64,000 nucleotides of DNA, from assembly GCA_051294905.1 (NCBI GenBank), contig CM119385.1, positions 4,650,001 to 4,714,000 on the forward strand, read 5' to 3'. Below the pieces are notes generated by a model. It made no database searches. It was given only the letters and a program-made list of their open reading frames with translations, and was not told the origin of the DNA. Positions 1-35,468 of this stretch are shown here, in pieces. Made by a program: the position numbers and the translations under genes. The stretch comes from Botryllus schlosseri (Eukaryota). The stretch's first letter is position 1. Each line of letters opens with the position of its first letter.

Positions 1-138
1 TAGAGGTTTTGTTCTTTTGTCTTATTTCAGATACCTCTGATTATGCGTACATAATACTAATGCATATTTAATATGACTAATGCATATTTAATATGACTGA
101 ACGGACACTATATAGACAAGAAGTCAGTCGCATTTTCT

Positions 139-2972
139 TTGGCAATTTCTCTGGATGACATTCCTGGACCACATTCGACCCCAAAGCATTCAGAGATAGT
201 AAGGTCGTGGAAAAGACGTAGGAGAGCCGCGTCTGCAAAGAATATAGAGATTGTTCGATGTCTGTGGAGGAATAGCTCCGAATTCAGGGCCAATGTGATT
301 ACGTTCTTCCGCCAACATCATGAATTAAACACCGATAACTCGATCTATTTCTTCGATTGAGTCACCTGAAGTTCGTGGAGCAGAGAGAAATTCAGAGCTG
401 ACGTCGGATGTGATGCAAAAGACACCCATACAAACACCATTTTCGGACAATGATTCGAAATACGATGAAGTCATGGAACCTGTATTTTTGTTATTGCAAG
501 CGACCGTATATAATGGAGAGTTTATGGTGAAATGCAATGATTGCAAATTGTGGTTTCATCCTGCATGCGCTTTCCCATCGGACAGTAAAGAAATCACATT
601 TGATCGTAATAAATGGCGTATAACGTCTTTAGCTTGTGGACGTGGTAAAGACCATAACACCGGCAAAAAAAATCGCCGGGTTTACACTCACGCACCGCAG
701 CGCACTGAAAATCCTAATGTCGACAAGGAGTTATTTCCCCCCAAGTCTCCCAACGGTGCAGGTGTCACAGAAATGGATGGAATGGTAAATCATTCAGATG
801 ATGCTTCTCTGAATCCTAATGTCACTGAAGATGATGCCATGGAAAAAGATGGAATATTGGATTCTTCATATGATGCTTCCCTGTATCGCAATATCACCGA
901 AAATGATATCACAGAACATGATGGAATATTAAATCATTCCGATGATGCTTCTCTGAATCCTAATGTCACTGAAGATGATGCCACGGAAAAAGATGGAATA
1001 TTGCATTCTTCATATGATGCTTCCCCGAATCGCAATATCACCGAAGATGATATCACAGAAAATGGTGGAATATTAAATCAATCTGATGACGCTTCTCTAA
1101 ATCCTTACGTCACTGAAGATGATGTCACCGAAAAAGATGGAATATTGGATCCTTCATATGATACTTCCCTGAATAGTAATGTCTCTGAAGATGATATCAC
1201 AGAACAAGATGCATCTGATCATACAAAATCGTTTCCAGATTCCCGGATGACGTCGAATTCTAAACCAGTCGCGCACAGCGAAATTAATGAAGCATGGGTG
1301 AGTGATTCCGCAATCGAATCGATTGGAAGAATGACAGCGAAGATATCGGACAAGATCAAAGAACCTGATGAGGTGAACTTACGACGGTCAACTTCAATCA
1401 CCGTACAAGAATGGGAAAGGGCCATTAAAAATCGCGGCCAACATCATTTTGACAATAATTCTCCTTACAGAACGACACTTATACGGGCTCATCGGCAAGT
1501 TTATGATTCATGTGTGCCTATGATAAAAAGTAATTATTCGCGTGCTCCATACAAAGTGACAGAGATTACGACGGAATCTGAGCGATATTACGAAGGCAAT
1601 GTCATACTGTACTGCGGTCATAAAACATGTTGCGAATGTACGGTCACTATCCATGCTCAATTGTACAGTATGGTGAATTCGACGCAAATCGACTTTCTTA
1701 TAACTGGAGACAGGCATCATCGTCACGAATGCACTAAATCAAGAAGAGTTAAAGGCGAACAGCGGCTGAAACTGAAAGAGGAGCTTAATTAGAAAACCCC
1801 GACTCAAGTGCATCGAGATTTATTTGATACATTGTCAGAAAATGAACGGTTTTTTGGTTCACATACATTTGCACCCTCGACTGACGTTTTGAAAGACATC
1901 AAAAGAGATGACTGTCCAGTGGTAGAATATTCTAAAAACTTGCTATTCTGCATGTAGAAATTGGTGAAAATTTTCACGAATGAGAAGAAAACTAATTTTT
2001 TGCGTGCGTGGTCCGCGAATCCCCCAACCGTAACTATGAACAATTATGGGCAAATAAATATCTATAAAGAGCTGTGTCGCGTGGACTTCCTTTTCATCGA
2101 TGGCTCAGGTGTTGTGCGTAGCAGTAAGGGCTTTGAAAATTTTCAAATCTATGTGCTTTTAGTACGAAACCCAAGAAAGTGTCGACCGGGAATGCCGGTG
2201 GCAAGCTTTCTCACAAGCAAGCATGACACAATAACAATAGGAAACTTTCTGCGAGACTTCATACGCGATTCTTCGGGTAGAGAGCGATCCACGAAACCTC
2301 TCATCATTGTGATATACGGTAGTAAAGCCGTATGGAATGCAGTTTTGGATGCGTTTAACAGATGCTATCGCATTGTAACTGGCAATGCTGCGCAAAATGA
2401 CATGGAAAATACATTCGTAATAAATTGCTACAGTCACAGCATGAAAGCTGCATCCATCCTGTGTCGCAAGTACTACAAAAAGGCATTTGTTGCAACTGCA
2501 ATGTTTTGGATCGGTCTATTACTGTCGCAAGATATGCTATCAAAAATGGACGAGATAATGCGCCACATTTGTATTGTGTTGATTTCTCCAAAATGTACGT
2601 CATTTGTTAAGACCAGTTTTGCGTCTCTGTTATCACTGCAGAGAGAACAGGAATATCCAACTGATGCTGCTGGAATTGATGTCAGTGAGCCAATGCCACG
2701 ACGAGGATTATTTTTCTGGAATAACTCACGTCGAAAAAAAGCAAGAGTTGCAGTCTCCATTTTATACTCGATATCGCAATCTTGAGAAAGAGTGGATGTC
2801 AGCAACCGTAATTGATTCCGACCTGGAAAGTCAGTGCGACGATAACGTTTATTACTCTCCGTCATTTTACACCAAGTTCGTTGAAGTAATCGCTAGTCGA
2901 CTCGGTGTAACCTCGCGTCTTCTGCTAGGAGACTTATCAAGGCACAGTCGTCCTGAAATTCCTCCAAATCAT
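139..2972 (+). pseudogene. Mutator/NOF(Rehavkus)-like transposase, 5' part: PHD finger, acidic repeats, Zn-finger-like region, first half of DDE domain (stops and frameshifts)
   Basis: ORFs 410-1792 and 1961-2785 share one frame, separated only by two TAG stops. Motifs: MVKCNDCKLWFHPAC (PHD); C..C...H.H then RRVKGEQR; FLFIDGSG (Asp at 2099); PVASFLTSKHD; NCYSHSMK (MULE-type CxxH). After a frameshift the 2604 frame gives NVYYSPSF...SRLLLGD. Confidence 0.75.
776..1207 (+). repeat. Coding tandem repeat, 6 x 72 bp (24 aa), alternating A/B units
   Basis: Units DGxLNHSDDASLNPNVTEDDAxEK and DGILDSSYDASLxRNITExDITEx read directly in ORF 410-1792. Confidence 0.95.
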
Positions 2973-3254
2973 TGCTATTCAACCTGTGTGACGGTTCGCA
3001 CTAGTGCGAATGAAAAAAAATTCAGTGCGAATGACGAAAGTGGTGCGAATGGTGCGAATGAAAATCCGGATCAAGTGCGAATGAAAATCGTGAATAATAG
3101 TTAACTTTTCTAACGTGTAAATTCAAATAAACCTAATATTTAAGATCAGTGTAACATTTGCAGTTGTGACGCAATTGTAAAAGCTTAATACGACACACCA
3201 CTCATCGTAGCTCTCATAAGCCGTAGTGAATAAATATTCATGAACTATAATTAT

Positions 3255-3530
3255 GTTTTGTTTTGGGGTATTCATGGTGTCTGTCGACTACTATGGTCAT
3301 TTACACCAGGCCGATATTCTTCTTATTTTCCGTAACTGCCGACTTATAGCACGGCCCACCTCTAGGCTTTTTGTAAGACACCGCTGACGCGGATGAGGTG
3401 GCGAGGAGGAGCCTAGGTAAACCTCCAACACTTAGGTATCGGAATTCGGAAGTCGACCTCGGTCGGACTCGAACCCGCACCCATTGGTGTAGCAGCCGCG
3501 GATTATACCACTGCGCTATCTCGCCACAGG
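3255..3530 (-). mobile_element. tRNA-derived SINE
   Basis: Minus-strand head GGCGAGATAGCGCAGTGG (A box) ... GGTTCGAGTCC (B box); A-rich tail (ccccaaaacaaaac); perfect 14-bp TSD tgaactataattat at 3241-3254 and 3531-3544. Confidence 0.85.
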
Positions 3531-5030
3531 TGAACTATAATTATTACATAACCAAAAGCCGGGTTTCGAAGCTGGTGTAGTGACAGTATATATAGATATC
3601 TATAATCTCAATAAGTCTATGGTGGCGGACATACAGTATATCAGCCCGTCTGAGCCTGCGACAGGCTGGAAAAATGACATCAAATTGACTTTCTGCTTTC
3701 TTTCGCTAAACAATCATCATATTTTCGTCATAACTATTCGATTAGCGCGAGGCACGAGGATAGTAGTAAATACCATCATTACAGACTCACATTTGCAAGT
3801 TACTGTAAAGCAAATTTTTACCCCTTCAAGGGTTATTAAAGTATGAAGGTTATAATTTTGGGTCGACACGGTGCCAGAGCTAACTGTTAATATGTATGCG
3901 ATATTTATTGAATTTATTGCAAAGAATCTGGCGATCGTTTTTGCATATCCAAGATCACTGCGTTATGGGTAGGCCTACTGTAGCCAATAAGCGAGACACG
4001 ATAAGATTTGTCCGACTGTTTTTTCTTGAAAACATGGTCGAAGACCGTTGAGATCAACTAGTGTAGGGGTGTGCAACGAGCGAGTCCAGGCCTATGAGAC
4101 TCATTCATTTCGAGGCCAACCTCTTCTGAATCGGGGCACATGAAGACGTAAAGTTTTGGCGAACAAACCGCTGATAAAATGCGGCGCCAAAACATAAGCG
4201 GCGACATAACCTCGGTCTAAAATTGACCGATGCTGGATGACCAAACCTTTCGAGAGGGATATGCTCCGTTGTCGGCACGGAATAGTCCCGTTCTTGCAAT
4301 CTGAGTAGACAGTAGTACAACAACTGCGATACGCTGAGGAATTTATTCCGCCCTAATTTGGAATCGCGTACGTCAGACAAGTTTTGTAGAGCTGTGTTGG
4401 GTGGAATTGTGGTGTGCGCGTTCTGTATATGTCATACATGCCCGTAAAATCGTAGCATACAACAGTAATATTTAGAAAAATCGTTTTCATGGGTGCGGCT
4501 CGGGTCGCGAGATGCCACAAAAACTCAGATTTTGGTGGAGGTCTAAAAGCTGATTTACCGTTATTAAACTGTCATGAATTCTCAAGTCAGATAGAGTCGA
4601 TAGAGTAGAGTAGAACACAAAGTATCGTGAGTTATTTGCTCTTCTCATGAACTTGCGAGACAGAAGTTGGAGCAACGTATCATCAGGTAGCGAGCTCTAA
4701 TGTGCCTACTCTCCTTGATTGTTTTGCACCTTATGTTCAAAAGACATAAGGCAAAAGCCTCAACACGAACATGGCGTTTTTTTTTTCGACAAACTGGACC
4801 CTCGCGGGACCTTTGTGTCAGCTCTCAAAAACGATTTCTGCCAGCAAGCATTTTTCACTCGCGAAAAATACGCTCTATTTTGGATAGGAGTGCAGAACAG
4901 ATTATAAGACCTTGTCATCCAAGCACTAGTAGACGTTCTTGTACAAATTTCCAATCAACATTGTTTGGCCGAGAAGGGTTTTAGTGAAATAATTGAAAGC
5001 AAAACGAGTGAAAAAAGTGGTGTCCGGTCA

Positions 5031-5103
5031 ATACCGAGAATGCTATTACCGAGAAGGACAATACCGAGAATGGACATTACCGAGAATGGAGAATACCGAG
5101 AAT
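5031..5103 (+). repeat. Short tandem array of (a/t)taccgagaa motif, 5 copies at 14-16-bp spacing
   Basis: ataccgagaa tgct attaccgagaa ggac aataccgagaa tggac attaccgagaa tggag aataccgagaa seen directly. Confidence 0.85.
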
Positions 5104-5280
5104 ATTGAGACACTTGATAGCTTAAGCTACATAGTAACCAATTTGTTGCACATCTGAACAATTATTGTTAAGTAGGCCTATCTTCATCTTCTTTTTGTAT
5201 AACACTTTTCGATTAGTTTGTGCGAATGAAATTTATTTTACAAAAAAAGTGCGAACGGAGCTCAAAAAGGTTGAAAAGCA

Positions 5281-5684
5281 CTTCTCCAAATCATTACATG
5301 AAATATGCAAATTGGTGGAAACAATTGAAGAAATATCCTGGGCGCTCAATCTGCGACGGTACAATAACGCAAGGTTCAATTGAGCAATTTTTCCGGCAGT
5401 TGAAGCGAAACTATCAAAACAACAAGCGTGCATCAAATGTACCAAAGTTCGTGTGGGACTACGAAGATGCAACGAGAGTGACTGACAGATCGTTTGCTGA
5501 TGATTTAGTGAAAGTCAAGTACTGCTCGCGGCCTGTACCGAAACGGAAACTCCAAATATATCATCAAGAAGAACAACCGGTAAATAAAAAGTCAAAATTT
5601 CTAGAGACGAAATTCAAGAGACGAAGCCAAAGAGAAGGATATTACGGAACTCCCACGGCCGCCGAAAAAAATCAGGGATCGTAA
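5281..5684 (+). pseudogene. Mutator/NOF-like transposase, 3' part of DDE domain
   Basis: TITQGSIEQFFRQLKRN resembles the T-x3-E-x2-F-x2-LK motif carrying the catalytic Glu (5382-5384); in frame with the 5' part after the insertion is removed. Confidence 0.7.
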
Positions 5685-5694
5685 CTCAAAATCA

Positions 5695-6438
5695 TTGACA
5701 CCGGAGGAAAAACTCGCAGAAAAGTTATGGGAGTCGATAAAAGAACACGCCTTATCGACTGTCGGTACGAAATTGACAGACACTGCGATCAAATCGAAAT
5801 TCGAAGTCGCTGTGACGAATGCTGATATAGTGTCTGTTTGCCCCAACCCATCGGAGAAAATCATTCATAATATCAATGAAATCATGACAAATGACACTAA
5901 ACCAGGATGGCTAACAGACGGTATTGTTAATGCTTTTGTAATCCAGTGTGCGCTCAACGGAAATTCTCAGTTAAATGAAAGTCATTATGGGTATCTGACA
6001 ACGGACATGACTCATTTCATACTTTGTGGAAATAAGCCTCGAGCAGTTCCAGACACTATCCTTGATCACAATCGGCACTTACGCGAAGTCATACTTTTAC
6101 CAATTCTTATTCGTCGGGATTTCAATCATTTTGCTCTTCTCTGTTTTCAAGAAAAGAATAAAATATTCATATTTTACGATTCTTCTGGTGCCCGTGATAC
6201 GGAGGAGCAACACGAGATTTCATCGTCAATTACAGAATACCTATCTGGTATTTCTAGGATAGATATGAACAACGTGACGAAGGAATTTTGCGGCGACTTT
6301 CTTCAAACCGACTCTTCTTCTTTGCGGTGTTTGTGCATGTATGGCAGCGTGGAGCATATGTTTGCAAGAAGCACCGTACACATTTGCAAAATGAATTCCG
6401 TCATACAATCATTTGGGAGCTACGTCAAGACTGCCTGA
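5695..6438 (+). pseudogene. Ulp1/SENP-like (peptidase C48) domain of the transposon
   Basis: GWLTDGIVNAF; His in NHFALL; Asp in FYDSS; oxyanion QTDSSS followed by the Cys codon (TGC GGT, 6323) shifted by one extra T. Confidence 0.8.
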
Positions 6439-6496
6439 CATCATCCCACATTGTGCGAAATGCTGAGGTTGAATGTGGCATTATTACTCAGATATA

Positions 6497-7284
6497 CCTG
6501 GACTCGAAAATCTAGGAAATACATGCTGATTCAATTCTGTTATGCAAGCATACTCTCATGTCACACGGCCGAGATTGGGGCCACTGGATGAGAGTAGGCA
6601 AATTCACGGGGAATTCGCAAATACACTTATCTCGTTGACAAACTTGAAGGCGGTTGCAAGTGACGAATTAATGAATGCTGTTAAAATTGCATGTGAGAGA
6701 ACTAAACTAGAGTTTGGTAAGCAGCGCGATTGTCTGGAGTTCTATTCACTATCTTCCTTGCCACAAGTATTGGAAGATATTCGTTGGAAGCACGAATTGA
6801 AATACGAGCGGATCATCCACTGCAACGAATGTCAAACGAATGGAACAACAGTACACCGAGAAAAAATCTTAAAGGTGAATTGCGGAGCTGCATCGATAGC
6901 AGAAGCATTTCAGATTTCACAAATCAAATGTGAAAAATGTGATTCCGCGATAAATACTAATGTCAAGCTCACTGAAATTCCGAATCCAGTGACAGTGTGG
7001 CTCGACCGTGCGAATTCTATGGGTAAAAAGATGGAAAATACTGTCTTTGCCAACCGGAACCTCGACATTCAGGGACCTGATCAAGATTGGATCGGATATT
7101 CGCTCAAGGCTGTAGTAGTTGCACACATCGGATCGGATGGAGACGGACACAATATCGCATATTTAATTCATTCGAAATGTATGGTACGGCTTTGCAACGA
7201 AGAAATTGTATAGAATTTGTTGATTCGAACGCAGCTTTCAACGCCATGTCAAGGAATGTATACCTCTTTATTTATCTCAGAAAG
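6497..7284 (+). pseudogene. Ubiquitin-specific protease (USP/UCH, peptidase C19) domain of the transposon
   Basis: Cys box PGLENLGNTC*FNSVMQA (TGA at 6527) in frame with ORF 6542; QRDCLEF (QDxxE box); CNEC...CEKC Zn pair; His box YSLKAVVVAHIGSDGDGHNIA; terminal box SRNVYLFIYLRK after a frameshift near 7205. Confidence 0.85.
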
Positions 7285-7779
7285 ATGAAGCGAAGATTAC
7301 CGCTGCAAAACTTCTCCAAGCAAGAATATTTCATGCAAAGTCTGCCATTAGAAATGATGGATATCAATGAAGAAACTAAAGCAATCGGTGACACAATATT
7401 TCAGGACATTGTAAATATTTGTCATCTTACATTACACGATTCGCAAAAGGACGTCCGTAGTCAGCGACATTCCCTTTTTCTCGAAAACAAACACGCTGAA
7501 TTGCAGAAAATTATCGTACCTGTTGGACAAAATGACAGCGAAGAAATCAAAGTCATATTCCAATATATCAAAAACAAGACCTGCGTCTTACATGCGAGAT
7601 GGATCAGACATTTGAACACAGGAACAGAATACGTCGCATACAACACATTTTCGCGAATAATTTTCAACAAGGCTGTGGTGCATGAGGACAGTGAGCTCAT
7701 GAAGAAATTAGCACCAACGCACAGCAACGACAAGTATTTCAAGTTGGTTGTGTTGCAAGTAGTGTTTGTCCATCACTGA
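7285..7779 (+). CDS. Uninterrupted 164-aa C-terminal extension of unknown function, in frame with the USP terminal box
   Basis: Part of ORF 7087-7779, contiguous with VYLFIYLRK; no motif recognised. Confidence 0.4.
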   Translation: MKRRLPLQNFSKQEYFMQSLPLEMMDINEETKAIGDTIFQDIVNICHLTLHDSQKDVRSQRHSLFLENKHAELQKIIVPVGQNDSEEIKVIFQYIKNKTCVLHARWIRHLNTGTEYVAYNTFSRIIFNKAVVHEDSELMKKLAPTHSNDKYFKLVVLQVVFVHH

Positions 7780-8923
7780 GAAGAGAACATACGAAGAAGT
7801 TTTGGAGAATCTGAATGTAGGCCTACCATATGAATGGCGAAAAAAATTAATTACAAGTTTCGTTTCTACAGCTTTCACATCGTATTTTGAATATACTTTT
7901 TTGTTGAAGAACTATCGAATTTCATTTCATTGGTAGTTTTGTTTTGTTGGTTTACTTTTGTTCTGAAATCGCACAAGACTTTTAAATAGCATATGAAGAC
8001 CGACATTATGCAGAGATTTGCGTCACCAAATATTGTACTGAAGTCAGAGGTATAAACGCATCTCGTAATTTGCAGTGGCGAGCAATTTGCAGTCGTTAAG
8101 GCATATAAGTTGAGTCGGCATTATGAGAAAACTGCTAGTGAGATACAGACACCGGGCGAGGCTTACAGAGAGCGCGAATTTCGGATGGCTTACTAGCAAA
8201 ACCAGGTTTATTTTACCAAACTGCACAAACCTCGGAATGCAGCGACCAAAACCAAGAATAATGACCCTGGATATATAAGCCTAATATTTTTTAGTAAATT
8301 AACCTTAACTTTTCATTACCAAATATTAATACACCAGCTACAGCAGCTTGTGTTAACAATAGCATAAACTAGCTGTCTTCTTCGTCTTTAGAAAAATATT
8401 AAAAGGGTCAGATTTTATCAGAGTCGGGGCCAATTAGGGGCATATCTCGAAATAACAATAGTGCGTAAATAGGGAAATTTTGGTGGATGAACGGTAGTCA
8501 TATTATTAGTTCACACAGCTATCAAAGTATCCTGCTGTCAGTAGGGAATAACTGACATCAGATAAAAGTGATACCGACAATCATAAGTCCTCAAAATTGA
8601 GTCATCAAAAACACTCAGCATGCACTGTGCAAAAGCGTAATAATACGGAAAATTAATTATCCTATGCTATTTGTAATAGCCAGGAAGATCTGGAATCTAA
8701 AAAGAAATTTTAATGAAAGTAATTTGAAAGCTCTTTCCGATGATGTGTTAATTATCTGAATTGTAGGTGAGGTACACTCTTGAATCCGGCCTTGAATGTG
8801 GAATTTGACGTACACTGGAATTGAGGCCAAGAATGCCCGACAGCGCAATGTAACGTAACTTTGGTCCTCGTGTTCGTAATTAAGCAGGACGATCTGGAAT
8901 CTAAAAATGGATTTGAATTAAAG

Positions 8924-9075
8924 TCAGCCTCGAATTTTTCGTTGTTATGGAGATTGGCATTGGGACGCAACAATGCTCTCTGGCTCTTTTTCTCTTGAGC
9001 TACTCTCTCGTTTCGCCAGACAGCATTGTTGCGTCCCAATGCCAATCTCCATAAAAATGAAGAATTCGAGGCTGA
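8924..9075. other. Long hairpin: 61-bp arms, 30-nt loop
   Basis: 8924-8984 is the reverse complement of 9015-9075 at 57/61 positions. Confidence 0.9.
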
Positions 9076-9638
9076 TTGTGGGAGTTCCAGGGCCACGAGC
9101 TGAATAAAATTTATATTTTCGTAATCAGTGCAGAGTCAGCTTTCGATTGATACCCGTTTTACCAAATTTAATGCTCGGCAAGCCGGTCAAAAATGACTGT
9201 CAAATTGCCTGTAGCCAAATGGAAATTGTGACGTTATGCAATTTCACTGAGGCGTGAGATTTGCCTGTGTCGACACCATAAAGGACACTATGGTATAACG
9301 CATACTCCGTTTTTGAGGTTTTTCTTTATCGTTACGCTTCATCTAAACTTGCATTGTACTTGGTTCACTGTGTTTATATAGCTCAATGGTCCTACAGGGT
9401 TGGTTCGATTATGTTCACAATAAGAGCAATTCTGTTCACAATAAGAGCAGTCTCATGTTCACAATAAGAGCAGTCATGTTCACAATAAGAGCAGTCTCAT
9501 GTTCACAATAAGAGCAGTCGTTGTATTCACAATTAAATCAGTCGCAGCACCACCATATCCCCCTGACACCATGTCCGAGTGGCAACATAGTCCGAACACA
9601 ACCCAGACATGATGTCCGAACACCCCCAGACACGATGT

Positions 9639-10032
9639 TATGGGAAGGTGTGACGTCTGATAACCTGCTAAAGTTGTGACCTGAGTCCAACGTAATGTGT
9701 GGCTGGGTAGATATACTTAGCTCTTTTCGTAGCAGACGCACGTCTCTGCGTTTAGTCCTTGTTGATCTGACAACTTCAACGTGAATGCAACGACAGGATT
9801 GCCTCAGATAGATATATTGGTCGAATATGCATGGAATATATACAGTAGGATATCGCAGATGAGTCTAGCTTGTAAAATGAGATGCACGAGCTGATAAATG
9901 GCAAGTCACGTGGTAGCGAGAAGAAAGATATAAGTCACGTGATATACAGATATGGGCGATGTTCCGATGTACCATAATGATGTTGTATCTTACAAAGTGT
10001 ATGAACCGTGAGAGGGCGCAGGGCGTCCCACA
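9639..10032 (-). repeat. 3' LTR
   Basis: Direct repeat of 14131-14524; on the minus strand it is preceded by the polypurine-like tract at 10033-10044. Confidence 0.92.
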
Positions 10033-13000
10033 TCGCCTCCTGCTAAAAAGGCGTGATTATAGCGACAATACAAAATGAAATTTACATGCATTGAATAGCA
10101 GTACAATTACGAAACGTAATAATTGCAACGGATATCACATAGTGTGTGGTTTAACGTGGTAAGACCGAAGTGTGTAGTTAATAAAGTATTGGTAGAAAGG
10201 CGATAACACCAATTTAAAATGCAATATTGTAGCCTGATGTTGCAATATTTATACAACATGATAGCAATGAAACCATATATGAGATAGTGTATTGATAACA
10301 CGTTAAGGGTTAGATTAAATCTAGTCAAAATGGCGAATTGGTCATATCTGAGGCAATTTTTGTGTTTTATTAAAAGAACAATAAACGAAAGAAGAAAAAA
10401 ATATGTACACAAAGGAATTGACATTAGGTCTGGCGAATGCGTCATACGCTAGAACAAATTGGTGGTAACTCGAAAATGAGTGTATGTTATTTGTACATGC
10501 AAAATCCTATAAGCGGAATGTAGTGTATGGTTTGGGAGCATATTAAAGTCAAAACTACTTTTGAAAGTAATCGAAACACGTGGTATAGGAAGTAACGAAA
10601 GTAGGAAACTGGTGTCTGGGTTTTCTAGCGACCAGAGACTGCTTTTATGAGTCAATGGAGTTGAATAGAAAAAATTACTCAAATGATGATCTGGTAGTCG
10701 AACCGCTTAAAATGGCGAGATTTGTGGGAAATTTCCTGAACCATTAAGATTAACGACCATTGAAATAGTCACAAAGACCGGGGCCCGAAATTATGCGAGC
10801 CGTATATATTTTCGGCAAGAACAGTCGTATTGACGCATTCGCTAATGGGTAGCCTATACGAATGAATCTTGAAATGCTAATAAGTCCGCGTGGGAGAGAT
10901 AGATAAAAGTCATGAATCATAATCGAGTCTATAGGGATTACGAAATTCGCCGCGTTTGAAAAGTGAACAGTCCATCAGTCTTTTGGAAGACCGAATAATT
11001 ATTTATATACAGATAAGCCATGCACCGGGGGCCGCGAACCTGCCTGGAATAATTAACAGTCAATGCTCATAGCTCATTAAGGGTTGTATTTAGATCCAAT
11101 TAGTTCACTCCGCCAAGGTTAAAACGCGTATCGCCTGCTGTGCGAATATTCTTCACGACTGTTCAAGTCGGCTTTAAAATGCGTATAATACGTGGTTTTA
11201 CCAAAGCGCCATACGGAACTTGAAATTCCCGTAATGTCTGATAGGGCGGCGTCGGCTTAGCAGAGGTTGTTGTGTAGTAGAGAGCATTTCGGCGGTTCGC
11301 GATAGACCCGTGGCAGGCGACGACGAATTCTAGAATGCATTATAAGCAATATCGGCAGCAAGATGATATTTCACAAGGTGGTAATTAGCATAATATCATA
11401 GCAATAATGGCGATGACAAATTGAAAGAAAGTAAAATACAAAAACACATCGTTCGTCAGTGAACCAGATATGAGGTGGTGAAAATCTGCACCGATAGGGA
11501 GTATACGCTATAATGTGAGCGTAAGTACTAAGTATTGAATCGATTCCATACGTGACGGAGCGACGCAAGGCGGTTATATAAGCCTTGTGAGTAATTGGAG
11601 CTTTCAAGTAGAAGTTAATAAAAATTTACGGAATCTCGAAGTGAAAGGAAATAATGCCGGGTTATTCGGGTGTTTTGATCAGCTCAAAAGTATAGTAATG
11701 GAATATTCGCATCAAAGCATGTCAAGATGAATGTAATCGTAGCGTAACGCTGGGACTTCGTCATAAATAACGAAGTAACGTCGTGAAAGTAGAATGTACA
11801 AAATGTAAAGAGAGGTAATAACAATAGCTTAAGTAATGACAAATGTGTGTATTGTTAGGTAGCCTAATGGCATTGTTAGTGTTTAGTGCTGCGAACCGCA
11901 GTCATGTCGAAAAAAAAAGTCCCTAGCGATGTACATTGTACACAGCATGGTATACCACAAATCCATACACATTGATGAATCTGCGCGCCATATGCTATCC
12001 AGATATATAAAAAGGTTTCCGGAAATAAATTGACGTGATTTAATCAAGAATTTGGTCCACTAACGGATCGAAAGAAGGGATAAAAATAGTAATTAATCAT
12101 CACTGCACGCCACTTAACATATCGCAAGTGTGAGAACGTGCGCCCGCTACTTCAATAATGTGCTTCGAAGACTTACACATGGCAATGCCTAATGACGTAT
12201 CGACCGGTAAGATACATCTAAAAAAACAGTAAGTATTAGGTCAAATTCCCTAATACCGGATAAATAATTCATCCAACCGTATATACACTAATAGTGTCCG
12301 ATCGTGGATCATTTCGAAAAAAAAGCGTACGGGCGAGACGCGAGTCGACCGAATTTCACCTCAACTTCGTTATGTAATGATGGAAGCTTATAGCATGAGT
12401 TAAAATCGCATGTTTACAACCCATAGATTCCCCGGCCGGTAGAATCGCTGAGTCACGCACAAGCAATTCCCATGTCTAAAAACGATTTGGCGAGATAACA
12501 TGGCCAAACCCACTCATTACACACGATCCTAGGAGCAAAAGTGAAATCGTAGACCCGGTACTTCGACCATAACCTTAGTTAACGAGTTCCCCGTGTAGCG
12601 ATAATATGGGCAACGTGATATTGAAAATTTAACAGATTCGTGACTATACAAACGTGTCACGGATAGGTGACAAGATGTCAGTAATAGGTAGCCATGCCAT
12701 GAAATGTACAATGTATAAAGGTAAAAGATACGTATAGCTAATCGCATGTAACTATAGGTTGCAAAATCTGAGTATGTTCAGATGACATTATCGCGGGTAA
12801 GTATATAAGGACGTAAATTACGGGAAAAAAATGACAATTTGTCACCGTGTTAAAGCGGCCTTATTTAAGTATAGGTAATTAGAAGTAAGCGAAAATGTCA
12901 AAGACCTAGTATAAAGAAAGTAAGGAAGTCAATGTTTGAAGAAAATAGGGAAGTAACTTCCGTATTTATAAATTCCAGCAAAGCGCTGAGTGAGAAGTAA

Positions 13001-14112
13001 CGCTAATATGTGATTAAAATCGAATTATGATTATGGGTAATTGCAGCAAAAGCGAGGTTATGCGAATACGTGTAGTGAGATAAGATGAAGTTGCGTTATG
13101 CAGAGTTAAGTTAGTTATAAAATCCCCATTCCCAGTGAAACTGGTATATTTCAATAATTCAAAGCCGAAATCTAAATTGTCGGTTAAAAATAGCAGAATT
13201 TGCCGCGGAACATCATATAGAATCCCGATGGAATTCTATGCTATAGTCCGGCGAAAAGCCGTGTCAATATTTTTATCGAAGTAACATTGACGGTATAGTT
13301 ACGGTGGTTAAAAAGGGTAGCGCTTAAATACGCGCGGAAGTCAATGTCGCATGAATGACATATGAAATCACAAAAATTAATATCCTGAAATTGGTAATTA
13401 TGTTCCACGGAGATGCCGTGAATTAAAAAAACGAGCAAGAAAATAGATTGGTAAATTTCCACTGTGGTTGGCAGTGATTTACGCGGTAATATGAAGGTAG
13501 GAAAAACCGCAAAATTTATAATCAGAATCGAAATGGGGGTGTTAAACAATAAAACAACTGTAAGCAAATGGTATGTTACACGACTAAGGTAGGCTATTCG
13601 TGCGAAAGTGAAGTTGTATATATGGAAATAGTGAATAGTGAATCGGTAGTAATTATTCGATTTCACGGGAGAGAGAAGCAATTTTACCGGGCGATCGAGA
13701 GTGTAATTCCCGACGAGGAATGGATGTGATAATTTCGTTAGAAAGCAAAACGCTAAGATTCAAATAATAGTTTTTAAGGCCGTAATATAAAAACGAAACC
13801 AATGCACAATGTTCTGTCAGTGTCAGAGTATCACTCAAATCTGGTTCTCTGAATGTCATGGCGATGAATATAGGAACACAAACAACGAACATAATTATAT
13901 GGAAAGCACGAATCGAGCAATAGCGAGGAAATTTGCTGCTAGCCGATAAAGCCAAGTGAGATAAATCATTCTCGCTGCAAAATGCATTCCCGAAATTCGA
14001 AGTCAAGTAAACGGATTTACCGTGTAAGGGTGGAAAAGTCCTGGATGGCTCCATAGCAGTTGTTAGTCCAATTGTGTAGGAGGCGATTCGTCCTTCGTTG
14101 AAGCTTAAATCA

Positions 14113-14130
14113 TCTCACGAGCGTGCACCA
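14113..14130 (-). promoter_or_regulatory. Primer-binding site (tRNA not assigned)
   Basis: TGG-starting 18-mer immediately after the 5' LTR. Confidence 0.6.
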
Positions 14131-14524
14131 TATGGGAAGGTGTGACGTCTGATAACCTGCTAAAGTTGTGACCTGAGTCCCACGTAATGTGTGGCTGGGT
14201 GGATATACTTAGCTCTTTTCGTAGCAGACGCACGTCCCGGCGTTTAGTCCTTGTTGATCTGACAACTTCAACGTGAATGCAACGACAGGATTGCCTCAGA
14301 TAGATATATTGGTCGAATATGCATGGAATATATACAGTAGGATATCGCAGATGAGTCTAGCTTGTAAAATGAGATGCACGAGCTGATAAATGGCAAGTCA
14401 CGTGGTAGCGAGAAGAAAGATATAAGTCACGTGATATACAGATATGGGCGATGTTCCGATGTACCATAATGATGTTGTATCTTACAAAGTGTATGAACCG
14501 TGAGAGGGCGCAGGGCGTCCCACA
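14131..14524 (-). repeat. 5' LTR
   Basis: Termini TGTGGG...CCCATA on the minus strand; 390/394 identical to the 3' LTR. Confidence 0.92.
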
Positions 14525-15106
14525 ATGTCCTAGTGTCAACGCAGTTCGAACACACTCCTGACATGATGCCCGAACACCCCTAGACACGATGTCCGAATGT
14601 CAACGCAGTCCGAACACATCCCAGACACGATGTCCGAACGCCCCCCCCCCAGACACACCCCAGACATGAGGTCCGAACACCCCCCAGACATCCTCCATAC
14701 ACGATGTCCGAACTCACCACGCCCCAGACATGATGTCTGAGTGTCAACGCAGTCCGAACACACCCCAGACACGATGTCCTAACGCCCCTTCCCCAGACAC
14801 ACCCCAGACATGATGACCGAATACCCCCCAGACATCGTCCAGACACGATGTCCGAGCTCGCCACGCCCCAGACATGATTTCCGAGTGTCAACGCAGTCCG
14901 AAGACACCCCAAACATGATTTTATGAACACACCCTAGACTTGAAATTTGAACACAGGCCGGGACATGATGTCCGAACATCATTTCCGATTGGCAACGCAG
15001 TGTGGACACACCTCAGTCATGATATCCAAACACCCCCAGACATGATGTCCAGAGTGTCAATGCAGTCCGAAGATACCCCAGACATGATAATACAATAAGA
15101 TCAGCC

Positions 15107-15995
15107 ATGTTCACAATAAGAGCAGTCTCATGTTCAGAATAAGAGCAGTCATGTTCACAATAAGAACAGTCCTATGTTCACAATAAGAGCAGTCATGTTC
15201 ACAATAAGAACAGTCTCATGTTCACAATAAGAGCAGTCATGTTCACAATAAGAGCAGTCTCATGTTCACAATAAGAGCAGTCATGTTCACAATAAGAACA
15301 GTCTCATGTTCACAATAAGAGCAGTCATGTTCACAATAAGAACAGTCTCATGTTCACAATAAGAACAGTCTCATGTTCACAATAAGAGCAGTCGTTGTAT
15401 TCACAATAATATCAGTCGCAGCACCACCATATCCCCCGGACACGATGTCCGAGTGGCAACATAGTCCGAACACCACCCAGACACGATGTCCGAGTGTCAA
15501 CGCAGTCCGAACACACTCCTGACACGATGCCCGAACACCCCCAAACACGATGTACGTACGTAAAGCAGTGTGGCAACGCAGTGTGGACACACCTCAGTCA
15601 TGATATCCAAACACCCCCAGACATGATGTCCAGAGTGTCAATGCAGTCCGAAGATACCCCAGACATGATAATACAATAAGATCAGCCATGTTCACAATAA
15701 GAGCAGTCTCATGTTCACAATAAGAGCAGTCGTGTTCACAATGAGAACAGTCTTATGTTCACAATAAGAGCAGTCATGTTCACAATAAGAACAGTCTCAT
15801 GTTCACAATAAGAGCAGTCATGTTCACAATAAGAGCAGTCTCATGTTCACAATAAGAGCAGTCATGTTCACAATAAGAACAGTCTCATGTTCACAATGGG
15901 AGCAGTCATGTTCACAATAAGAACAGTCTCATGTTCACAATAAGAGCAGTCATGTTCACAATAAGAACAGTCTCATGTTCACAATAAGAGCAGTC
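15107..15995 (+). repeat. Two minisatellite arrays of atgttcacaataaga(g/a)cagtc(tc), 18/20-bp units, within a ~0.6-kb tandem duplication
   Basis: Arrays at 15107-15393 and 15688-15995; shorter copies at 9411-9519 and inverted at ~16700-16809. Confidence 0.95.
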
Positions 15996-17754
15996 GTTGT
16001 ATTCACAATAATATCAGTCGCAGCACCACCATATCCCCCGGACACGATGTCCGAGTGGCAACATAGTCCGAACACCACCCAGACATGATGTCCGAACACC
16101 CCCAGACACGATGTCCGAGTGTCAACGCAGTCCGAACACACTCCTGACACGATGCCCGAACACCCCCAAACACGATGTACGTACGTAAAGTAGGTGCGTA
16201 CAGGTACAGCGACCCAGTCGAGACCGATAGATTGATGACTCGAAGTTGACTCAAAAAAATTAGCTTTGAGTCACGAGTCAATTTACATTTTGAGACACAG
16301 AGTCAAGTTAAGTCGTGTCTGGGGGGGGGGTTCGGACATCGTGTCTGGGGTGTGATCGGACTGCGTTGACACTCGGACATCATGTCTGGGGCGTGGTGAG
16401 TTCGGACATCGTGTATGGATGAGGATGTCTGGGGGGTGTTCGGACATCATGTCTGGGGGGGGGGGCGTTCGGACATCGTGTCTGGGGTGTGTTCGGACGG
16501 CGTTGACACTCGGACATCGTGTCTGGGGGTGTTCGGGCATCATGTCAGGAGTGTGTTCGAACTGCGTTGAGACTCGGACATCGTGTCTGGGGGTGTTCGG
16601 ACATCATGTCTGGGTTGCGTTCGGACTATGTTGCCACTCGGACATCGTGTCCGGGGGATATGGTGGTGCTGCGACTGATGTTATTGTGAATAATACAACG
16701 ACTGCTCTTATTGTGAACATGAGACTGCTCTTATTGTGAACATGACTGCTCTTATTGTGAACATGAGACTGCTCTTATTGTGAACAGAATTGCTCTTATT
16801 GTGAACATAATCGAACCAACCCTACTCCAATGGTCAAGACAGTCAAGAAACTGCTGAAACCGTAAAATATAGCTGGGCACTATTATCTAATTGATTTAAC
16901 GATTAAATAGGTGAGATGAACAGAACATGGATAACATTTTTCAGCATACACAACTGCTTTCTGCCTGTTCAGAACAGATCCGGAAGAAACCGGTTGACGA
17001 TTCGAACATCTGTTTGTTTATCTAAACAAATTGCATAATAAGTTCCATAATGGTGTGTGTCTTGGGTTGAAGCTCTCTTAGCTCTGGAGGTTTTATGTCT
17101 TATCTTATGTTGTGTATATGGTGGATCGTACTGTTTGGTATCCGTATGAAGCAGGCAAAAACCTAGAACATATGTTGTATATGACATAGATAAGTCGTTG
17201 GGACAGTCCTTGCCTTGACGAGTTTAGCATTGCTGCTGCACCAGTATGGAATCGGTGTCCAAGGCACGCAGGATCACGCCGACTTGGTCGCCAGTTGCAC
17301 GCGATCACGCCGTCACGGGTCGTTGATTTCATTAAAAAAATAAAATTAAAAAAAAAAAATTTGAAAAAAAGTCAATTTTCTCAGCCACCTCAAATGCTAT
17401 ATTCCCGTTAGTATGTGGTATATAATGTTTTGACCTAATCCTCTAGCCAGGATCTGTTGATTACTGTCTGTTGGTAAAGTATTTGCACCTTGCCAGTGCT
17501 AAAGGACAGAGATTCCAATCAGGCTGCTGCAGTTTCACACGAGATGTCCAAGGCCCAAGGGATAGTATTCAGCTTATTTAGTCGTAACGTAACGTATAAC
17601 TCATATCAAACGTATATTTTACAATTTTTATGGAATGCTTCATGACTGTTCAAGAGTTATCCCCTACTGTAATAGTGTAATTCACAATTTTCATTCTGAA
17701 AATGTTCAGATATAATATGGGTGAAGACATAATCGTTAGTAAAAATTGCAAAGC

Positions 17755-19905
17755 ATGATGATACAAATGCTTCGAATATCGCCTTGCCTACAAACTGGAC
17801 GACAACTGGCCAGTACGAGTACAAGAAACCATGTTTTCACACGGATAAAGATACAGGACTGGCATTTCCACTCTCTTGCCCAACATAAATTTGCTCAAAG
17901 CACAGTCGTCGGGTTGAGATATTTCCATGTCACGCCGGTGGTTCAGAGCGATCAACATCAATCCAAAAAAGAAAATAGTCCCAATGACAAACTCCCATTC
18001 TTCTTTGGACTTGGCCTGTCGGCTTTCATCTCATACATGCTGTACATTACATTCACTGATGGAGGATCCAGTGACTCTCCTTTCAAATTTTCAATGTCTT
18101 TCAAAGATTTTGTGGAAGAGGTGTTACCAACTGGTGAAGTGGTAGCGTTGAATATGAATTCATATTCAGGAGGGCACAAAGCCCGTGCTATGCTTCGACG
18201 TGGGGCTTCTTTCAAGGGTAATTCTTACCCTATTCCTGTTTTGATCGAAATAACCGACATCAAAAATGCAAAAGAGTTTGAGAGGATCATTCGTAATGCG
18301 GAAAAAGCAATGGGACTCAGTCCGACTGAAGGAATACCAATCAGACATCAACTTGTGAGTACCGGTGATGCGTTCGCTGCGGTGGGATTACTATTGGCAA
18401 CTGTGACATTGGTGATATTGTTAATATCACGTGCGCAATCTGTTATGCGCAGTTCAGGCGGAATGACGTCTGTTGGTAAGCTAACGCCAAGTAGTAACAT
18501 AAAGAAAGTCCAAACTGGCATCAAATTCACAGATGTGGCAGGTTGTTCTGAAGCGAAACAAGAGGTAATGGAATTCGTCCACTATTTAAAGCATCCTGAA
18601 AAATACCAAAAACTAGGCGCTAAAATGCCGAGAGGCTGTCTTCTCACAGGCCCACCCGGTGTCGGTAAAACCTTACTAGCGAAAGCAGTTGCTAGTGAGG
18701 CAGAAGTCCCGTTCATATCAAAGGCCGGTTCTGACTTTGTTGAAATGATTGGTGGGCTCGGTGCCAAAAGAGTACGTGAGCTGTTTAAAGAAGCACGCTC
18801 GGTAGCGCCGTGCATTGTGTACATTGATGAATTAGATGCTGTCGGTGCGAAACGGTCTTCCGATAATTCTCAAATGTCAGGCGCCTCTGAACGAGATCAA
18901 ACTTTGAATCAAATTCTAGTGGAAATGGACGGTATTTTGAGTACGGCTCATGATGTAATTGTTATGGCGTCGACGAATCGTGTTGATATGTTAGATAAAG
19001 CTCTTTTGAGACCCGGTCGATTCGACAGGCATATTTCAATCGATTTACCGACTAAAATTGAAAGAAAAGACATTTTTGAGATACACATGAACAAACTGAA
19101 ATTGAAAGATCCACACTCTCCCTACTCTGATCGCTTAGCGGATTTATCTCCAGGCATGAGTGGCGCCGACATCGCTAATATCTGTAATGAAGCCGCGATT
19201 TGTGCAGCCCGAGATAAAGACACTCACATCGACGCCAGTCACTTCGAACAAGCCTTCGAACGAGTGCTGGGCGGATCCAAGAAAAAATCATCCGCCCTTT
19301 CCCCGGACGAGCGAAAAATAGTTTCGGTTCACGAAGCCGGGCATACTCTCGTCGGTTGGATGCTAAAGTACACGGACACGCTCGTTAAAGTTTCGATAGT
19401 CCCGAGGACCAAGTCTGCGTTGGGTTTTAGCAGGACGTTACAGCGCGAAACGAAAATGTACACAAGTCGGATTTTGATGGAAATCATGGCAACGAGATTG
19501 GCGGGAAGGTCGGCCGAGAATCTAGTCTTCGGTACGGTGACGCACGGGGCCGAAGACGACTTGAAAAAAGTCACGGACATGGCATATATGAAAGTGAAGG
19601 AGTTTGGACTCAATCCTGTTGTCGGAAATTTATCGTTTTCAAAAGACGAGGAAGAGATAACGAAGCCGTACAGCGACTCGCTGGCGCAAGAGATCGATAT
19701 TCAAGTCAAAAATACCGTAATCGAAGCTCACCAAATTGCGCACGACATACTAGTTGCTAACCGATCGAAATTAGATATATTATCCAAAGAACTGCTTGAG
19801 AAAGAAGTGTTGAACTACGACGATATCAAAAATCTTATTGGCCCCCCTCCATACAGTAATCATGGTGATAAAATTATGGATGATGTTCCCAATTTGAATA
19901 CTTGA
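17755..19905 (+). CDS. SPG7: Paraplegin, mitochondrial m-AAA protease subunit (single-exon CDS, 716 aa)
   Basis: N-terminal transit-like region and two TM segments; Walker A GPPGVGKT; Walker B IVYIDELD; SRH ALLRPGRFDR; M41 HEAGH and GAEDD. GGLGAKRVRELFKEAR..APCIVYIDE and HEAGHTLVGW match paraplegin better than AFG3L2. First ATG at 17755 (the ORF-track start 17746 is TTG). Confidence 0.9.
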   Translation: MMIQMLRISPCLQTGRQLASTSTRNHVFTRIKIQDWHFHSLAQHKFAQSTVVGLRYFHVTPVVQSDQHQSKKENSPNDKLPFFFGLGLSAFISYMLYITFTDGGSSDSPFKFSMSFKDFVEEVLPTGEVVALNMNSYSGGHKARAMLRRGASFKGNSYPIPVLIEITDIKNAKEFERIIRNAEKAMGLSPTEGIPIRHQLVSTGDAFAAVGLLLATVTLVILLISRAQSVMRSSGGMTSVGKLTPSSNIKKVQTGIKFTDVAGCSEAKQEVMEFVHYLKHPEKYQKLGAKMPRGCLLTGPPGVGKTLLAKAVASEAEVPFISKAGSDFVEMIGGLGAKRVRELFKEARSVAPCIVYIDELDAVGAKRSSDNSQMSGASERDQTLNQILVEMDGILSTAHDVIVMASTNRVDMLDKALLRPGRFDRHISIDLPTKIERKDIFEIHMNKLKLKDPHSPYSDRLADLSPGMSGADIANICNEAAICAARDKDTHIDASHFEQAFERVLGGSKKKSSALSPDERKIVSVHEAGHTLVGWMLKYTDTLVKVSIVPRTKSALGFSRTLQRETKMYTSRILMEIMATRLAGRSAENLVFGTVTHGAEDDLKKVTDMAYMKVKEFGLNPVVGNLSFSKDEEEITKPYSDSLAQEIDIQVKNTVIEAHQIAHDILVANRSKLDILSKELLEKEVLNYDDIKNLIGPPPYSNHGDKIMDDVPNLNT

Positions 19906-23469: not shown

Positions 23470-25512
23470 TCAAGGAGGAGTCCTGGCTACTTTATCAACT
23501 GACGTGAATACAGCATTATCCAACTGCCTCGTTACATCAAAACCATTCTGACACTCATAGTCTAATGGTGATTCAACAGAAAGCGCTTGGTTTCTTTGAA
23601 GCGTAAAATCAACGACGTGCTGAACAAGATTGTCGACGGCGCGTTTCTTTCTCTCTGACTGTTGAATTATTGTTGAGCTATCGCTTGTAGGCACCAGACG
23701 ATAAGGACTTTTTTGTGGACAGTTTTCTCTCGGATTAATCGGCTCAAAACTGTCGAGTAAATTATGCTTTAGCGGTGACGATGGTCCCAGTGATAAATGT
23801 CCACTTTTCAGTTGCGATGACAAAGCATCGGCGCCCCAGCAAGAAATCGCAGGTGTCGGTAAATCTGGTATCAAAGGCGACATATTGCTTGGAGATACAT
23901 GATCCTCCATAACATCAGGGACAGGAGACTTAATTTGCGGTTCAGGAGAAAATTCAATCTGGTTTCGAGAATCTACAAGGTTATTAGGAGATTGGGGAGT
24001 AGGCGGCGTTTGTGGTCGATCAAAGTCTGTATACTGCGGTGCTGTTGATTCGAATTCTGGGAAAGGAGGAAGAATTGATATCATACGTATCACGGAAGGG
24101 GATAATGGTGTTTCGGGAGCTCCCGTTTCCTTCAATATATCATCGTCAGTAAACTGTAGGGGGGGACTTACACGCGGAATGTTCAGGCTATCGTTAGGAT
24201 CAAATTTAGTGGTGGCACTACTGTTCTCTGGAGCTACCAGGCCAGGAATTAGGACAGTTTTATTCATTTCGTCTTTGTAAATACATTCGTCCACATTCTT
24301 ACGTAATTTACCATTCATTTCCTCGGCAAGCATTGTTCCACGCCGTAAATCATTCAACAAAGTAGAGAGACCAGCCGCCTGCTTTGAATGGACAATGTTG
24401 CTGGCCTTCAGCGTGACAATGAAGCTTTCGAAATCAGGCATACCTTCGTGCATTTGCGATAATATTTGTTGCAACGCGATGTTTGTTAATTTTATGAAGC
24501 TGACAAGGTCAAGCATCTCGGATTGGTAAAGGTCCGTGCCGACTTTTTCAGCAATCTCCTGGTTGCAATCTTTTATCAAAGATGAAGGTATTTTCAGGTC
24601 TAAATCGGCTGAACTTAAAGTTTTTGCAGTGCTGCTTTGGGATAGTATCGATGCTACGATTTCTCTCTCAACTCCAGTTTCGTCGCATTTTGATATGATC
24701 AAATCCCATTTTTTCATCACCGACTTCAATTCTGATCGTAGCTCGCTCTCCAATTTTTTGATGGCATCCTGATTCGGTAAGGTGGCGTTGCGTGGTACTG
24801 GTATCTTCAACTTTCCAAGCAAATCAAGCTTCTGATTTCGGAGTTCCGTCATCTTTTTTTCTCTTTCTCTATACTTTGACAGCATGGAATGAATGAAGCG
24901 TTCCACCTCAAAATCCAATTCCCGGGACACCTGCAAGGTTTCGGTAAAACCAGACATGGCGCAACCAGTTGCAGCTCTCAGGGCTGCTTTTTGGAAATCT
25001 TCCAAGCGAGAATCTTGGCAGGATGGAGGCGGCAGAAGTATCATATCATCATCCGGACAAAGTCTTCTAGCGCATGCGTCAAGAACATATGCCGAGAACG
25101 TAAAAATAAATTTCGTAACTTCCGGGCCGCTGGCTTTCATGAATAGCGCAGGCCCGATTGAAGGAAAATCAAACGCAGTGTCTTTTGCACATTCTCGCAA
25201 CCACGATATGCATATCTTTTGAAATTCTTGCTCATTCTTTTTATAGTACGTCGGGTAACAATGTTTGAACACAGAGAGACACTTCTTCCGATCCAACTTG
25301 TGAAATAGGAAATAGCAGAGAGCGATAAGTCCGCGGATATTGGGTTTGTCAAACATAGACTTTTGTATGGTGACAGAGCTCTTCTGTCTAAGCTCCTCGA
25401 AAGGACATTGCAGTAAGCTGAGATTCTGAAAGGTCAACTCCATGTGTTCGTCAAGAACGTGATTTGATTTTGTTTTGCTTGCTTTGCGTTGAATCCTCGG
25501 AGCAGTAGCCAT
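23470..25512 (-). CDS. HAUS6: HAUS augmin-like complex subunit 6 (single-exon CDS, 680 aa)
   Basis: MFDKPN..LCYFLFHKLD..F..CYP...EQEF.K.C..WL...FP.IG.ALF...GP matches the HAUS6 N-terminal domain; coiled-coil middle; S/P-rich tail with DNLVQHV. Confidence 0.85.
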   Translation of the reverse strand: MATAPRIQRKASKTKSNHVLDEHMELTFQNLSLLQCPFEELRQKSSVTIQKSMFDKPNIRGLIALCYFLFHKLDRKKCLSVFKHCYPTYYKKNEQEFQKICISWLRECAKDTAFDFPSIGPALFMKASGPEVTKFIFTFSAYVLDACARRLCPDDDMILLPPPSCQDSRLEDFQKAALRAATGCAMSGFTETLQVSRELDFEVERFIHSMLSKYREREKKMTELRNQKLDLLGKLKIPVPRNATLPNQDAIKKLESELRSELKSVMKKWDLIISKCDETGVEREIVASILSQSSTAKTLSSADLDLKIPSSLIKDCNQEIAEKVGTDLYQSEMLDLVSFIKLTNIALQQILSQMHEGMPDFESFIVTLKASNIVHSKQAAGLSTLLNDLRRGTMLAEEMNGKLRKNVDECIYKDEMNKTVLIPGLVAPENSSATTKFDPNDSLNIPRVSPPLQFTDDDILKETGAPETPLSPSVIRMISILPPFPEFESTAPQYTDFDRPQTPPTPQSPNNLVDSRNQIEFSPEPQIKSPVPDVMEDHVSPSNMSPLIPDLPTPAISCWGADALSSQLKSGHLSLGPSSPLKHNLLDSFEPINPRENCPQKSPYRLVPTSDSSTIIQQSERKKRAVDNLVQHVVDFTLQRNQALSVESPLDYECQNGFDVTRQLDNAVFTSVDKVARTPP

Positions 25513-25823
25513 TTGGATGATCGATATAAATAACTGAACAAAACACTAGAAAAAATATAATTCATGATTTGATCATGTCGATATAGATACCGCCTGCTGG
25601 TGTGGTCAGACTGAATTTTCTAAATGTGTAACCATAGAACTAGACTACAACTGACGACCTCGAAAAGTCAGCAACTACCGGTAACTGACTAAAACCCAAC
25701 TGAATTAAGTAGAATAAATTACTAAGCAACTAATTAATTTTGATTTTATCGGAATCAGATCGACTTATGAACATCACAGTATAAGTTTGAAATGGGAGGG
25801 AGGGGTATTGAACCCTAAAACTC

Positions 25824-33692: not shown

Positions 33693-33780
33693 ATATTTAT
33701 CACAGTTTTGTTCAGTTTCGTGCCCTCAACTACAACTAGAAAAAACAGGATGATTTCTTCAGATCTAACAAAAGAAAATA

Positions 33781-33922
33781 TATTAGAGGATGAAGCGGAA
33801 AGCTATTTCACAGCAAAGAGTCATAGCATGGACTGTGATATTTTGAGTTACTGGAGAACAGAAAATCGTTTTCCCCATCTCAGGGCTGCTGCTGCTCGAG
33901 AACTCGTATGCATGACGGCAAC
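33781..33922 (+). pseudogene. hAT transposase C-terminal dimerisation-domain fragment
   Basis: EAESYF...DILSYWRTENRFPHL...ARELVCMTAT matches the D.L.WW....FP.L...AR..L..PAT pattern. Confidence 0.7.
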
Positions 33923-35423: not shown

Positions 35424-35468
35424 CGTTAGTACAGTGCCGCGGTCACTAGCATAAAGCATATTGGCGAT

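Follow-up and report, generated by a model that had tools for sequence, protein, structure and literature searches.

The USP/C19 domain at 6497-7284 of the window, by which we mean the whole 64,000-nucleotide stretch of Botryllus schlosseri DNA that was analysed, is real, and it is neither a hidden host gene nor a fresh capture from mRNA. It belongs instead, as one of several modules, to a foldback DNA transposon that is present in multiple copies, is decayed here and has transposase motifs of the Rehavkus/MULE type. The best explanation overall, which we consider likely, is that we see here a USP module, now dead, from a foldback transposon whose intact copies encode a PHD-DDE-Ulp1-USP protein, and that the module in its intact form would be an active deubiquitinase that protects the transposase together with Ulp1. 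The part of this explanation that concerns identity, that is, the anatomy of the element, the fusion, the decay of the window copy and the conservation of both catalytic sets in distant relatives, is held with high confidence.

The USP/C19 remnant and the decay of the window copy

When the window copy was translated, the Cys box described in the initial annotation was found from 6497 as PGLENLGNTC*FNSVMQA, with the Cys at 6524-6526 and the TGA at 6527-6529, and the first ATG of the downstream called ORF was found at 6542, which is indeed 45 nt 3' of 6497. The other USP motifs follow in the order that had been reported, CNEC at 6821-6832, CEKC at 6929-6940 and the His box (His at 7148-7150), all in the same frame as the Cys box, and a 2-nt insertion near 7208 precedes NVYLFIY, which lies in another frame. 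The corrected domain, with X at the stop, matched Pfam UCH with 51.4 bits (E=1.5e-13) against a curated cut-off of 23.9 bits and so passed the refuting check set in the initial annotation, and the called ORF by itself matched with 31.7 bits. It had also been proposed that the TGA likely came from TGG and that sister copies be checked for TGG or TAT at this codon. Among 19 sister loci the Cys box was present in 16, and in these the codon was TGG in 14, TTG in one, TAG in one and TAT in none. The description of the domain as complete holds for the order of the motifs but not for the window copy itself, which carries a stop (6527), a frameshift near 7208 and Glu (7199-7201) in place of the Asp in the tail of the His box, a residue that is Asp in 31 of 31 element rows, so that neither an open frame nor a full catalytic set is left. 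The frameshift at 6491 separates the USP from the upstream Ulp1 frame.

When the window copy was aligned with the ORF of an intact sister, an alignment that leaves out bases 1-1150, it proved to carry stops at 1790, 1955 and 6527. Indels that shift its frame lie at 2693, 5664, 6320, 6368, 6491, 7208 and 7766, and a compensating indel pair lies near 7311-7316. Two catalytic residues are substituted, the second Asp of the transposase by Tyr and the USP Asp by Glu. The window copy is a pseudogene and a dead relic. Its left terminal repeat lies 1,076 nt upstream of the window start, and a search of the window that allowed up to 5 mismatches revealed no right counterpart. DNA contigs placed over the window copy leave a gap at 6698-7232, from which nothing is inferred. 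The parts of the copy are given in Table 1.

Table 1. Parts of the decayed element, in positions of the window
Feature	Position	Strand	Remarks
Element ORF, 5' part, broken	97..1792	+	N-terminus, PHD finger, repeat, Cys/His-rich region
PHD finger	about 470-730	+	Pfam E=7.6e-5, just under cut-off
Coding tandem repeat	763-1211	+	72-nt unit
Cys/His-rich putative DNA-binding region	within 97..1792	+	
DDE transposase, N-part	1958..2973	+	CxxH motif; first Asp 2099-2101; second Asp replaced by Tyr, 2315-2317
Secondary insertion, 2.3 kb, splitting the transposase	2974..5283		Inverted ends; target duplication of about 9-12 nt
DDE transposase, C-part, then basic linker	5284..5700	+	Catalytic Glu 5382-5384
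Ulp1/C48-type protease remnant	5870..6440	+	His 6127-6129; Cys motif broken by frameshift 6320
USP/C19 domain remnant	6497..7284	+	Motifs and Pfam UCH
C-terminal domain of unknown function, conserved, broken here	7285..7846	+	About 190 aa in intact sister
Right subterminal repeat arm remnant	8544..8926	+	Family of about 204-nt units

The insertion at 2974-5283 ends in a very high-copy inverted-repeat element, with many loose contig ends at 5282, and it probably consists of nested non-autonomous elements. Further repeats and genes were seen in the rest of the window. Another unit that resembles a foldback element occupies 9396-16823. Its inverted ends are perfect over 132 nt, it contains a 44-nt and a 64-nt tandem array and an internal duplication, an 8-nt flank duplication with one mismatch is plausible, and no coding match was found in it. 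Long inverted repeats typical of MITEs lie at 28441-28927, 29228-29687 and 34721-37303, with related dispersed copies at 47.8-62.2 kb, and a weak match to the hAT dimerisation domain (33525-34031, forward strand, E=0.07) is likely a transposase relic. Two genes each occupy a single ORF: a 720-aa FtsH/m-AAA-type protease (AAA and Peptidase_M41) at 17743-19905 on the forward strand, intronless over its length, and a 691-aa HAUS6-like gene at 23470-25545 on the reverse strand.

Intact sisters and the placement of the transposase

When the same genome (495 Mb in 219 contigs) was searched at the DNA level, all 28 candidates scored were matches, and in several of these sisters a single frame runs from the transposase through the USP. 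An intact sister on contig 14 has one ORF of 1,674 aa between inverted ends, in which the order of domains is PHD, DDE transposase, Ulp1, USP and a C-terminal domain of unknown function. Pfam matched PHD, C48 (E=2.3e-5, 24.8 bits, cut-off 20.7) and UCH (60.9 bits, cut-off 23.9) on this ORF, no Pfam family matched its DDE region, and a sequence search of the PDB with the DDE profile returned nothing meaningful. In the coordinates of this copy (L031), the Ulp1 domain spans 7403-8065 and the USP 8084-8878. This copy is 11.6 kb long and has about 17 units of 203 nt behind its left end; subterminal arrays of the element are built of units of about 200 nt, and long inverted arms were seen in two of the five copies compared. 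The terminal motif was matched 60 times genome-wide (31 forward, 29 reverse) and its reversed-pattern control not once, and the perfect terminal repeat measures 23-72 nt. An exact 8-bp target duplication flanks 13 of the 15 end pairs examined; a 9-bp duplication fitted none of the 15 and was rejected. A copy on contig 12 apparently has its right-end region duplicated and inverted upstream of the ORF, which is the type of rearrangement that yields long foldback arms.

When 39 DDE rows were aligned, the catalytic positions were D525 in 37, D598 in 39 and E855 in 34, and after the second Asp a CxxH motif was kept (C644 in 38, H647 in 39), so that the DDE triad and the CxxH are as expected for a MULE transposase. 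The MULE superfamily is described in the available text of PMC6446971 as having terminal inverted repeats and 8-11-bp target duplications, and the element has both inverted terminal repeats and an 8-bp duplication. Rehavkus, a Repbase group placed with or beside the MULE superfamily, is given in the same text one ORF, a PHD finger, a minisatellite and a 9-bp duplication. The element likewise is a one-ORF element with a PHD finger and a subterminal minisatellite, and the likeness extends to its subterminal tandem repeats and foldback ends (PMC6446971; bioRxiv 2024.12.02.626372, as far as their text was available). Compared by eye, the DDE motifs match those of the six Rehavkus rows given in the supplement of PMC13359780: a D[AS]TG first Asp, an S-x-[KR/E]-H-D stretch, a long spacer before CxxH, SPFY, N-Y followed by LW, and a final E-x-x-F-x-x-x-K. 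The differences are that Rehavkus is listed with a 9-bp duplication whereas the element has 8 bp, that no USP domain is listed for Rehavkus in the available text of PMC6446971 and bioRxiv 2024.12.02.626372, and that Rehavkus hosts are insects and annelids whereas relatives of the element reach further hosts. Because the duplication length differs and the likeness was judged by eye, apart from any joint tree, we call the element Rehavkus-like and not a member of Rehavkus.

Relatives, age and constraint of the protease domains

Scanning the genome with Pfam UCH yielded 131 candidates and, from these, 97 matches, and all of the 20 matching regions that were inspected resemble the element protein, the more distant families being 21-34% identical. 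In families whose USP shares 21-26% identity with the reference domain, the USP sits in frame at the same position, and the Cys, His, Asp and most of the CxxC cysteines are kept. When 1.84 billion representative proteins were searched with a profile of the DDE-Ulp1-USP core, at least 150 hits were listed, and since this profile included the USP it favours USP-bearing hits. A scan of 155 proteins, many of them fragments, with our own profiles found DDE in 126 and the USP in 32 of those, and when 31 long hits were scanned with Pfam 24 had DDE, and of these 15 had UCH and 10 had UCH and C48. The order DDE-USP-Ulp1 is found in most relatives, and DDE-Ulp1-USP in the families of this genome and in the relative P0007; the ends and target duplications described above are those of the latter order, from this genome. 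A relative from the shrimp Palaemon carinicauda has DDE, UCH and C48; one from Oryzias has C48 and PHD but not UCH; one from Actinia has a partial UCH below the cut-off; one from Clytia is labelled ubiquitinyl hydrolase in UniRef, with Pfam UCH absent in our scans; and those from Holothuria and Mugilogobius had no Pfam hit. Word-index searches for relatives found few (1, 4 and 1 hits), a metagenome scan gave one weak locus, and no USP relatives were found in viral contigs by a search sensitive to close relatives only. In this genome, a small contig (C23:47937-83565, loci L055-L058) has four USP matches of equal score whose orientation alternates; together with those on C85 (L051, L054) they are possibly a tandem or an organelle-like or contaminant repeat.

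The Asn, His and Asp of the USP are kept in all 31 element rows and the Cys in all 30 rows that cover it, and a Trp follows the catalytic Cys in 29 of 30. The dN/dS of the USP between subfamilies is 0.26-0.55 (5 pairs, not independent, no confidence intervals) and that of the DDE core is 0.13 (one pair), which is a tighter constraint than on the USP. In a tree of 55 USP rows all element USPs and four fragmentary hits group together on one side, apart from the sampled host USPs, with support of 99/96, and this grouping holds (SH-aLRT 99) in a mixture-model tree from which 15 of the 55 rows (long branches, near duplicates and the pseudo-USP outgroup) were dropped. Host sampling in the USP tree is small, with 9 host and 11 other host-type rows, which limits it, and the element USPs could also be drawn to one another by long-branch attraction. 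Across 18 proteins, USP identity and DDE identity rise and fall together (rho 0.53; 0 of 5000 permutations), as expected from long joint inheritance, although relatedness alone inflates this test. Within this clade of transposases, then, the USP has a long history. No USP was seen in 15 of the 39 rows with DDE, and about 7 changes on the DDE tree are needed to account for where it is present. Thus, it is either dispensable or often truncated in gene calls, and losses, truncations or swaps are common.

In the Ulp1 domain, all 26 rows have the catalytic His, Gln and Cys, the catalytic Asp position holds Asp in 23 and Asn in 3, and dN/dS between subfamilies is 0.39-0.56 (2 pairs, no intervals). 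The C-terminal domain (L031:8879-9442 in the intact copy) is conserved in several families and in the relatives P0002 and P0013; three references were left out of its alignment or of the trimmed sets. Its model has a pLDDT of 86, and a Foldseek search with it found nothing at E<=0.001, the best structural alignment having a Z of 4.2 and an rmsd of 4.7 over 88 residues. The absence of a clear structural match to this modelled domain does not show that it is a new fold.

The model of the USP has a pLDDT of 89.2 and the thumb-palm-fingers USP fold. Its Foldseek matches are USPs (best E=8.1e-20, TM about 0.7), at 14-21% identity in the top structural alignments. The USPs of cells (USP36, USP18, USP30, USP12/46) and of giant viruses (Megaviridae, Pithovirus) share with it the common fold, the Cys and His boxes and the Zn-finger pairs, whereas the element domain differs from them in being compact (about 265-315 aa), in its low identity and in the Trp after the catalytic Cys. 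We name no donor, because cellular and giant-virus USPs match the model about equally. USP28/25 was considered as a donor and rejected, since that single-sequence PDB hit rests on the 18-residue Cys box and the profile ranks USP36 first.

Proposed role of the two proteases

The QxDxxEF-type box, the Zn-finger pairs and the fingers bind ubiquitin in known USPs, and SUMO leads on to ubiquitin-dependent removal of proteins. The intact USP domains of the element quite probably cleave ubiquitin, as far as their conserved residues and predicted fold can tell. Among the rival mechanisms we favour tethered protection of the transposase complex, tentatively and at a little under an even chance, because the two enzymes that would undo the tags are both carried by the transposase and are found side by side in two domain orders. 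According to this proposal the transposase would bind the repeat-rich ends and cut and paste with 8-bp duplications, the PHD finger would bind chromatin, and the DNA-bound transposase would become a target of SUMOylation and then of ubiquitination. The tethered Ulp1 and USP would reverse both tags in cis, on the transposase or on nearby repair or chromatin proteins, and by this reversal more transposition events would be completed. Related roles have been suggested in the available text of the literature: a role in repair after transposition (PMC2836005), and prevention of the degradation of transposition proteins (PMC9741609), where activity in vitro is reported for the VTD domains of Helitrons only.

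The main rival to tethered protection is anti-silencing, in which the proteases, guided by the PHD finger and by end binding, would strip SUMO and ubiquitin from chromatin or silencing factors at the copies and thereby raise transcription. A PHD finger within the same protein and the retention of both proteases in two domain orders would fit this as well, and the structural neighbours of the USP include chromatin deubiquitinases such as Ubp8, although these are not ranked above other USPs and histone-directed USPs were not singled out by the fold search. The RNA data count against it, as they do against the favoured explanation, in that the element family looks largely silent in the four runs sampled. 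From the 3-13% of each run that was sampled, the intact copy drew 26, 27, 297 and 145 reads, mostly in the 3' flank, and RNA depth over the intact ORF was mostly below 1, with a weak signal in one orientation toward the 3' end in one single-cell run. We regard anti-silencing as less likely than tethered protection.

Much less probable is that one or both proteases cut the long transposase polyprotein and not ubiquitin or SUMO conjugates. The element does have one very long multi-domain ORF, and C48-fold enzymes include viral processing proteases (the intact sister gives a weak Peptidase_C57 match, E=0.03), but the features named above as binding ubiquitin are all present in the USP, namely the QxDxxEF-type box, the two CxxC pairs of the Zn finger and a full fingers subdomain.

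The initial annotation had argued from the lack of introns that the domain was captured from mRNA or was a long-established module of the element, and only the second of these alternatives gained positive support, from a USP that is in frame with DDE and Ulp1 in intact sisters and is shared by deeply diverged families here and by relatives elsewhere. The context of transposase and Ulp1 and the dead state of this copy were not part of that annotation. MULE-type elements do capture host sequence, as described in the available text of PMC6446971, and a recent Pack-MULE-like cargo from host mRNA, having no role for the element, would lack introns as this domain does. The missing introns carry little information, however, because host USP domains in this genome are often single-exon (in 7 of the 9 top host-type USP hits a single frame without stops spans the Pfam domain completely) and because two long single-ORF genes lie in the window. 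The HAUS6-like ORF and the single-exon USP domains suggest an intron-poor gene set in this genome. Recent cargo is made very improbable by the best sampled host USP being only 24% identical to the element USP, by the shared in-frame position in families that are 21-26% identical, by the invariant catalytic residues with dN/dS <1, and by the genome matches to N.GN[ST]CWF, all 34 of which look like element families when judged by their position or codon string. Introns are absent from the element ORF as a whole, and an ancient RNA-mediated capture of the USP is conceivable. Finally, a host USP gene that still works or is recoded, and that ORF calling overlooked through read-through or an assembly error, would explain motifs that are all in order around one stop inside the domain, but three stops, seven frameshifting indel sites, two catalytic substitutions, a nested insertion and TGG in the sisters leave it next to no probability.

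Parts of this arrangement have been published: Mutator and Ginger1 elements with Ulp1, Helitrons with OTU and VTD, and a single Trichomonas protein that joins C19 to a transposase (PMC2836005, PMC9741609; available text). In Ulp1-bearing Mutator elements of plants, hydra and lancelet and in Ginger1 with Ulp1 or OTU, the modifier protease is likewise C-terminal to a DDE transposase, sometimes with a PHD finger, but these have one protease class each (C48 or OTU) whereas the element described here has C48 and C19 together (PMC2836005). The Trichomonas protein XP_001314237.1 joins transposase_11 to Peptidase C19 and is thus a published USP-class domain on a DNA transposase; compared by description only, it is a single protein of another transposase family for which that text mentions no Ulp1 (PMC2836005). 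The OTU and VTD deubiquitinases of Helitrons and Helentrons retain their active sites and sometimes come as two classes per ORF, but these are rolling-circle elements with different protease folds and have neither USP nor SUMO protease in the text of PMC9741609. No USP, or USP with Ulp1, on a MULE/Rehavkus transposase was found in the available full-text literature, including PMC6446971, PMC13359780, PMC6431247 and two preprints; Repbase and subscription journals lie outside this scope and may hold a prior description.

A wider reading is possible but doubtful: a cross-phylum Rehavkus-like clade, with its own ancient USP subfamily, Ulp1 and PHD finger, may constitute a dedicated counter-defence module that reverses both steps from SUMO to ubiquitin at element DNA, its pairing of proteases rebuilt in two domain orders and one lineage adding a C-terminal domain for which no structural match was found. 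That SUMO and ubiquitin proteases aid transposon movement has been proposed since at least 2010, and the available text of PMC2836005 and PMC9741609 puts it forward as a suggestion without demonstrating it. Since both protease classes sit on a single cut-and-paste transposase in an intact natural copy, their role can be tested cleanly, and an unannotated USP subfamily of this kind can inflate the counts of deubiquitinases in animal genomes.
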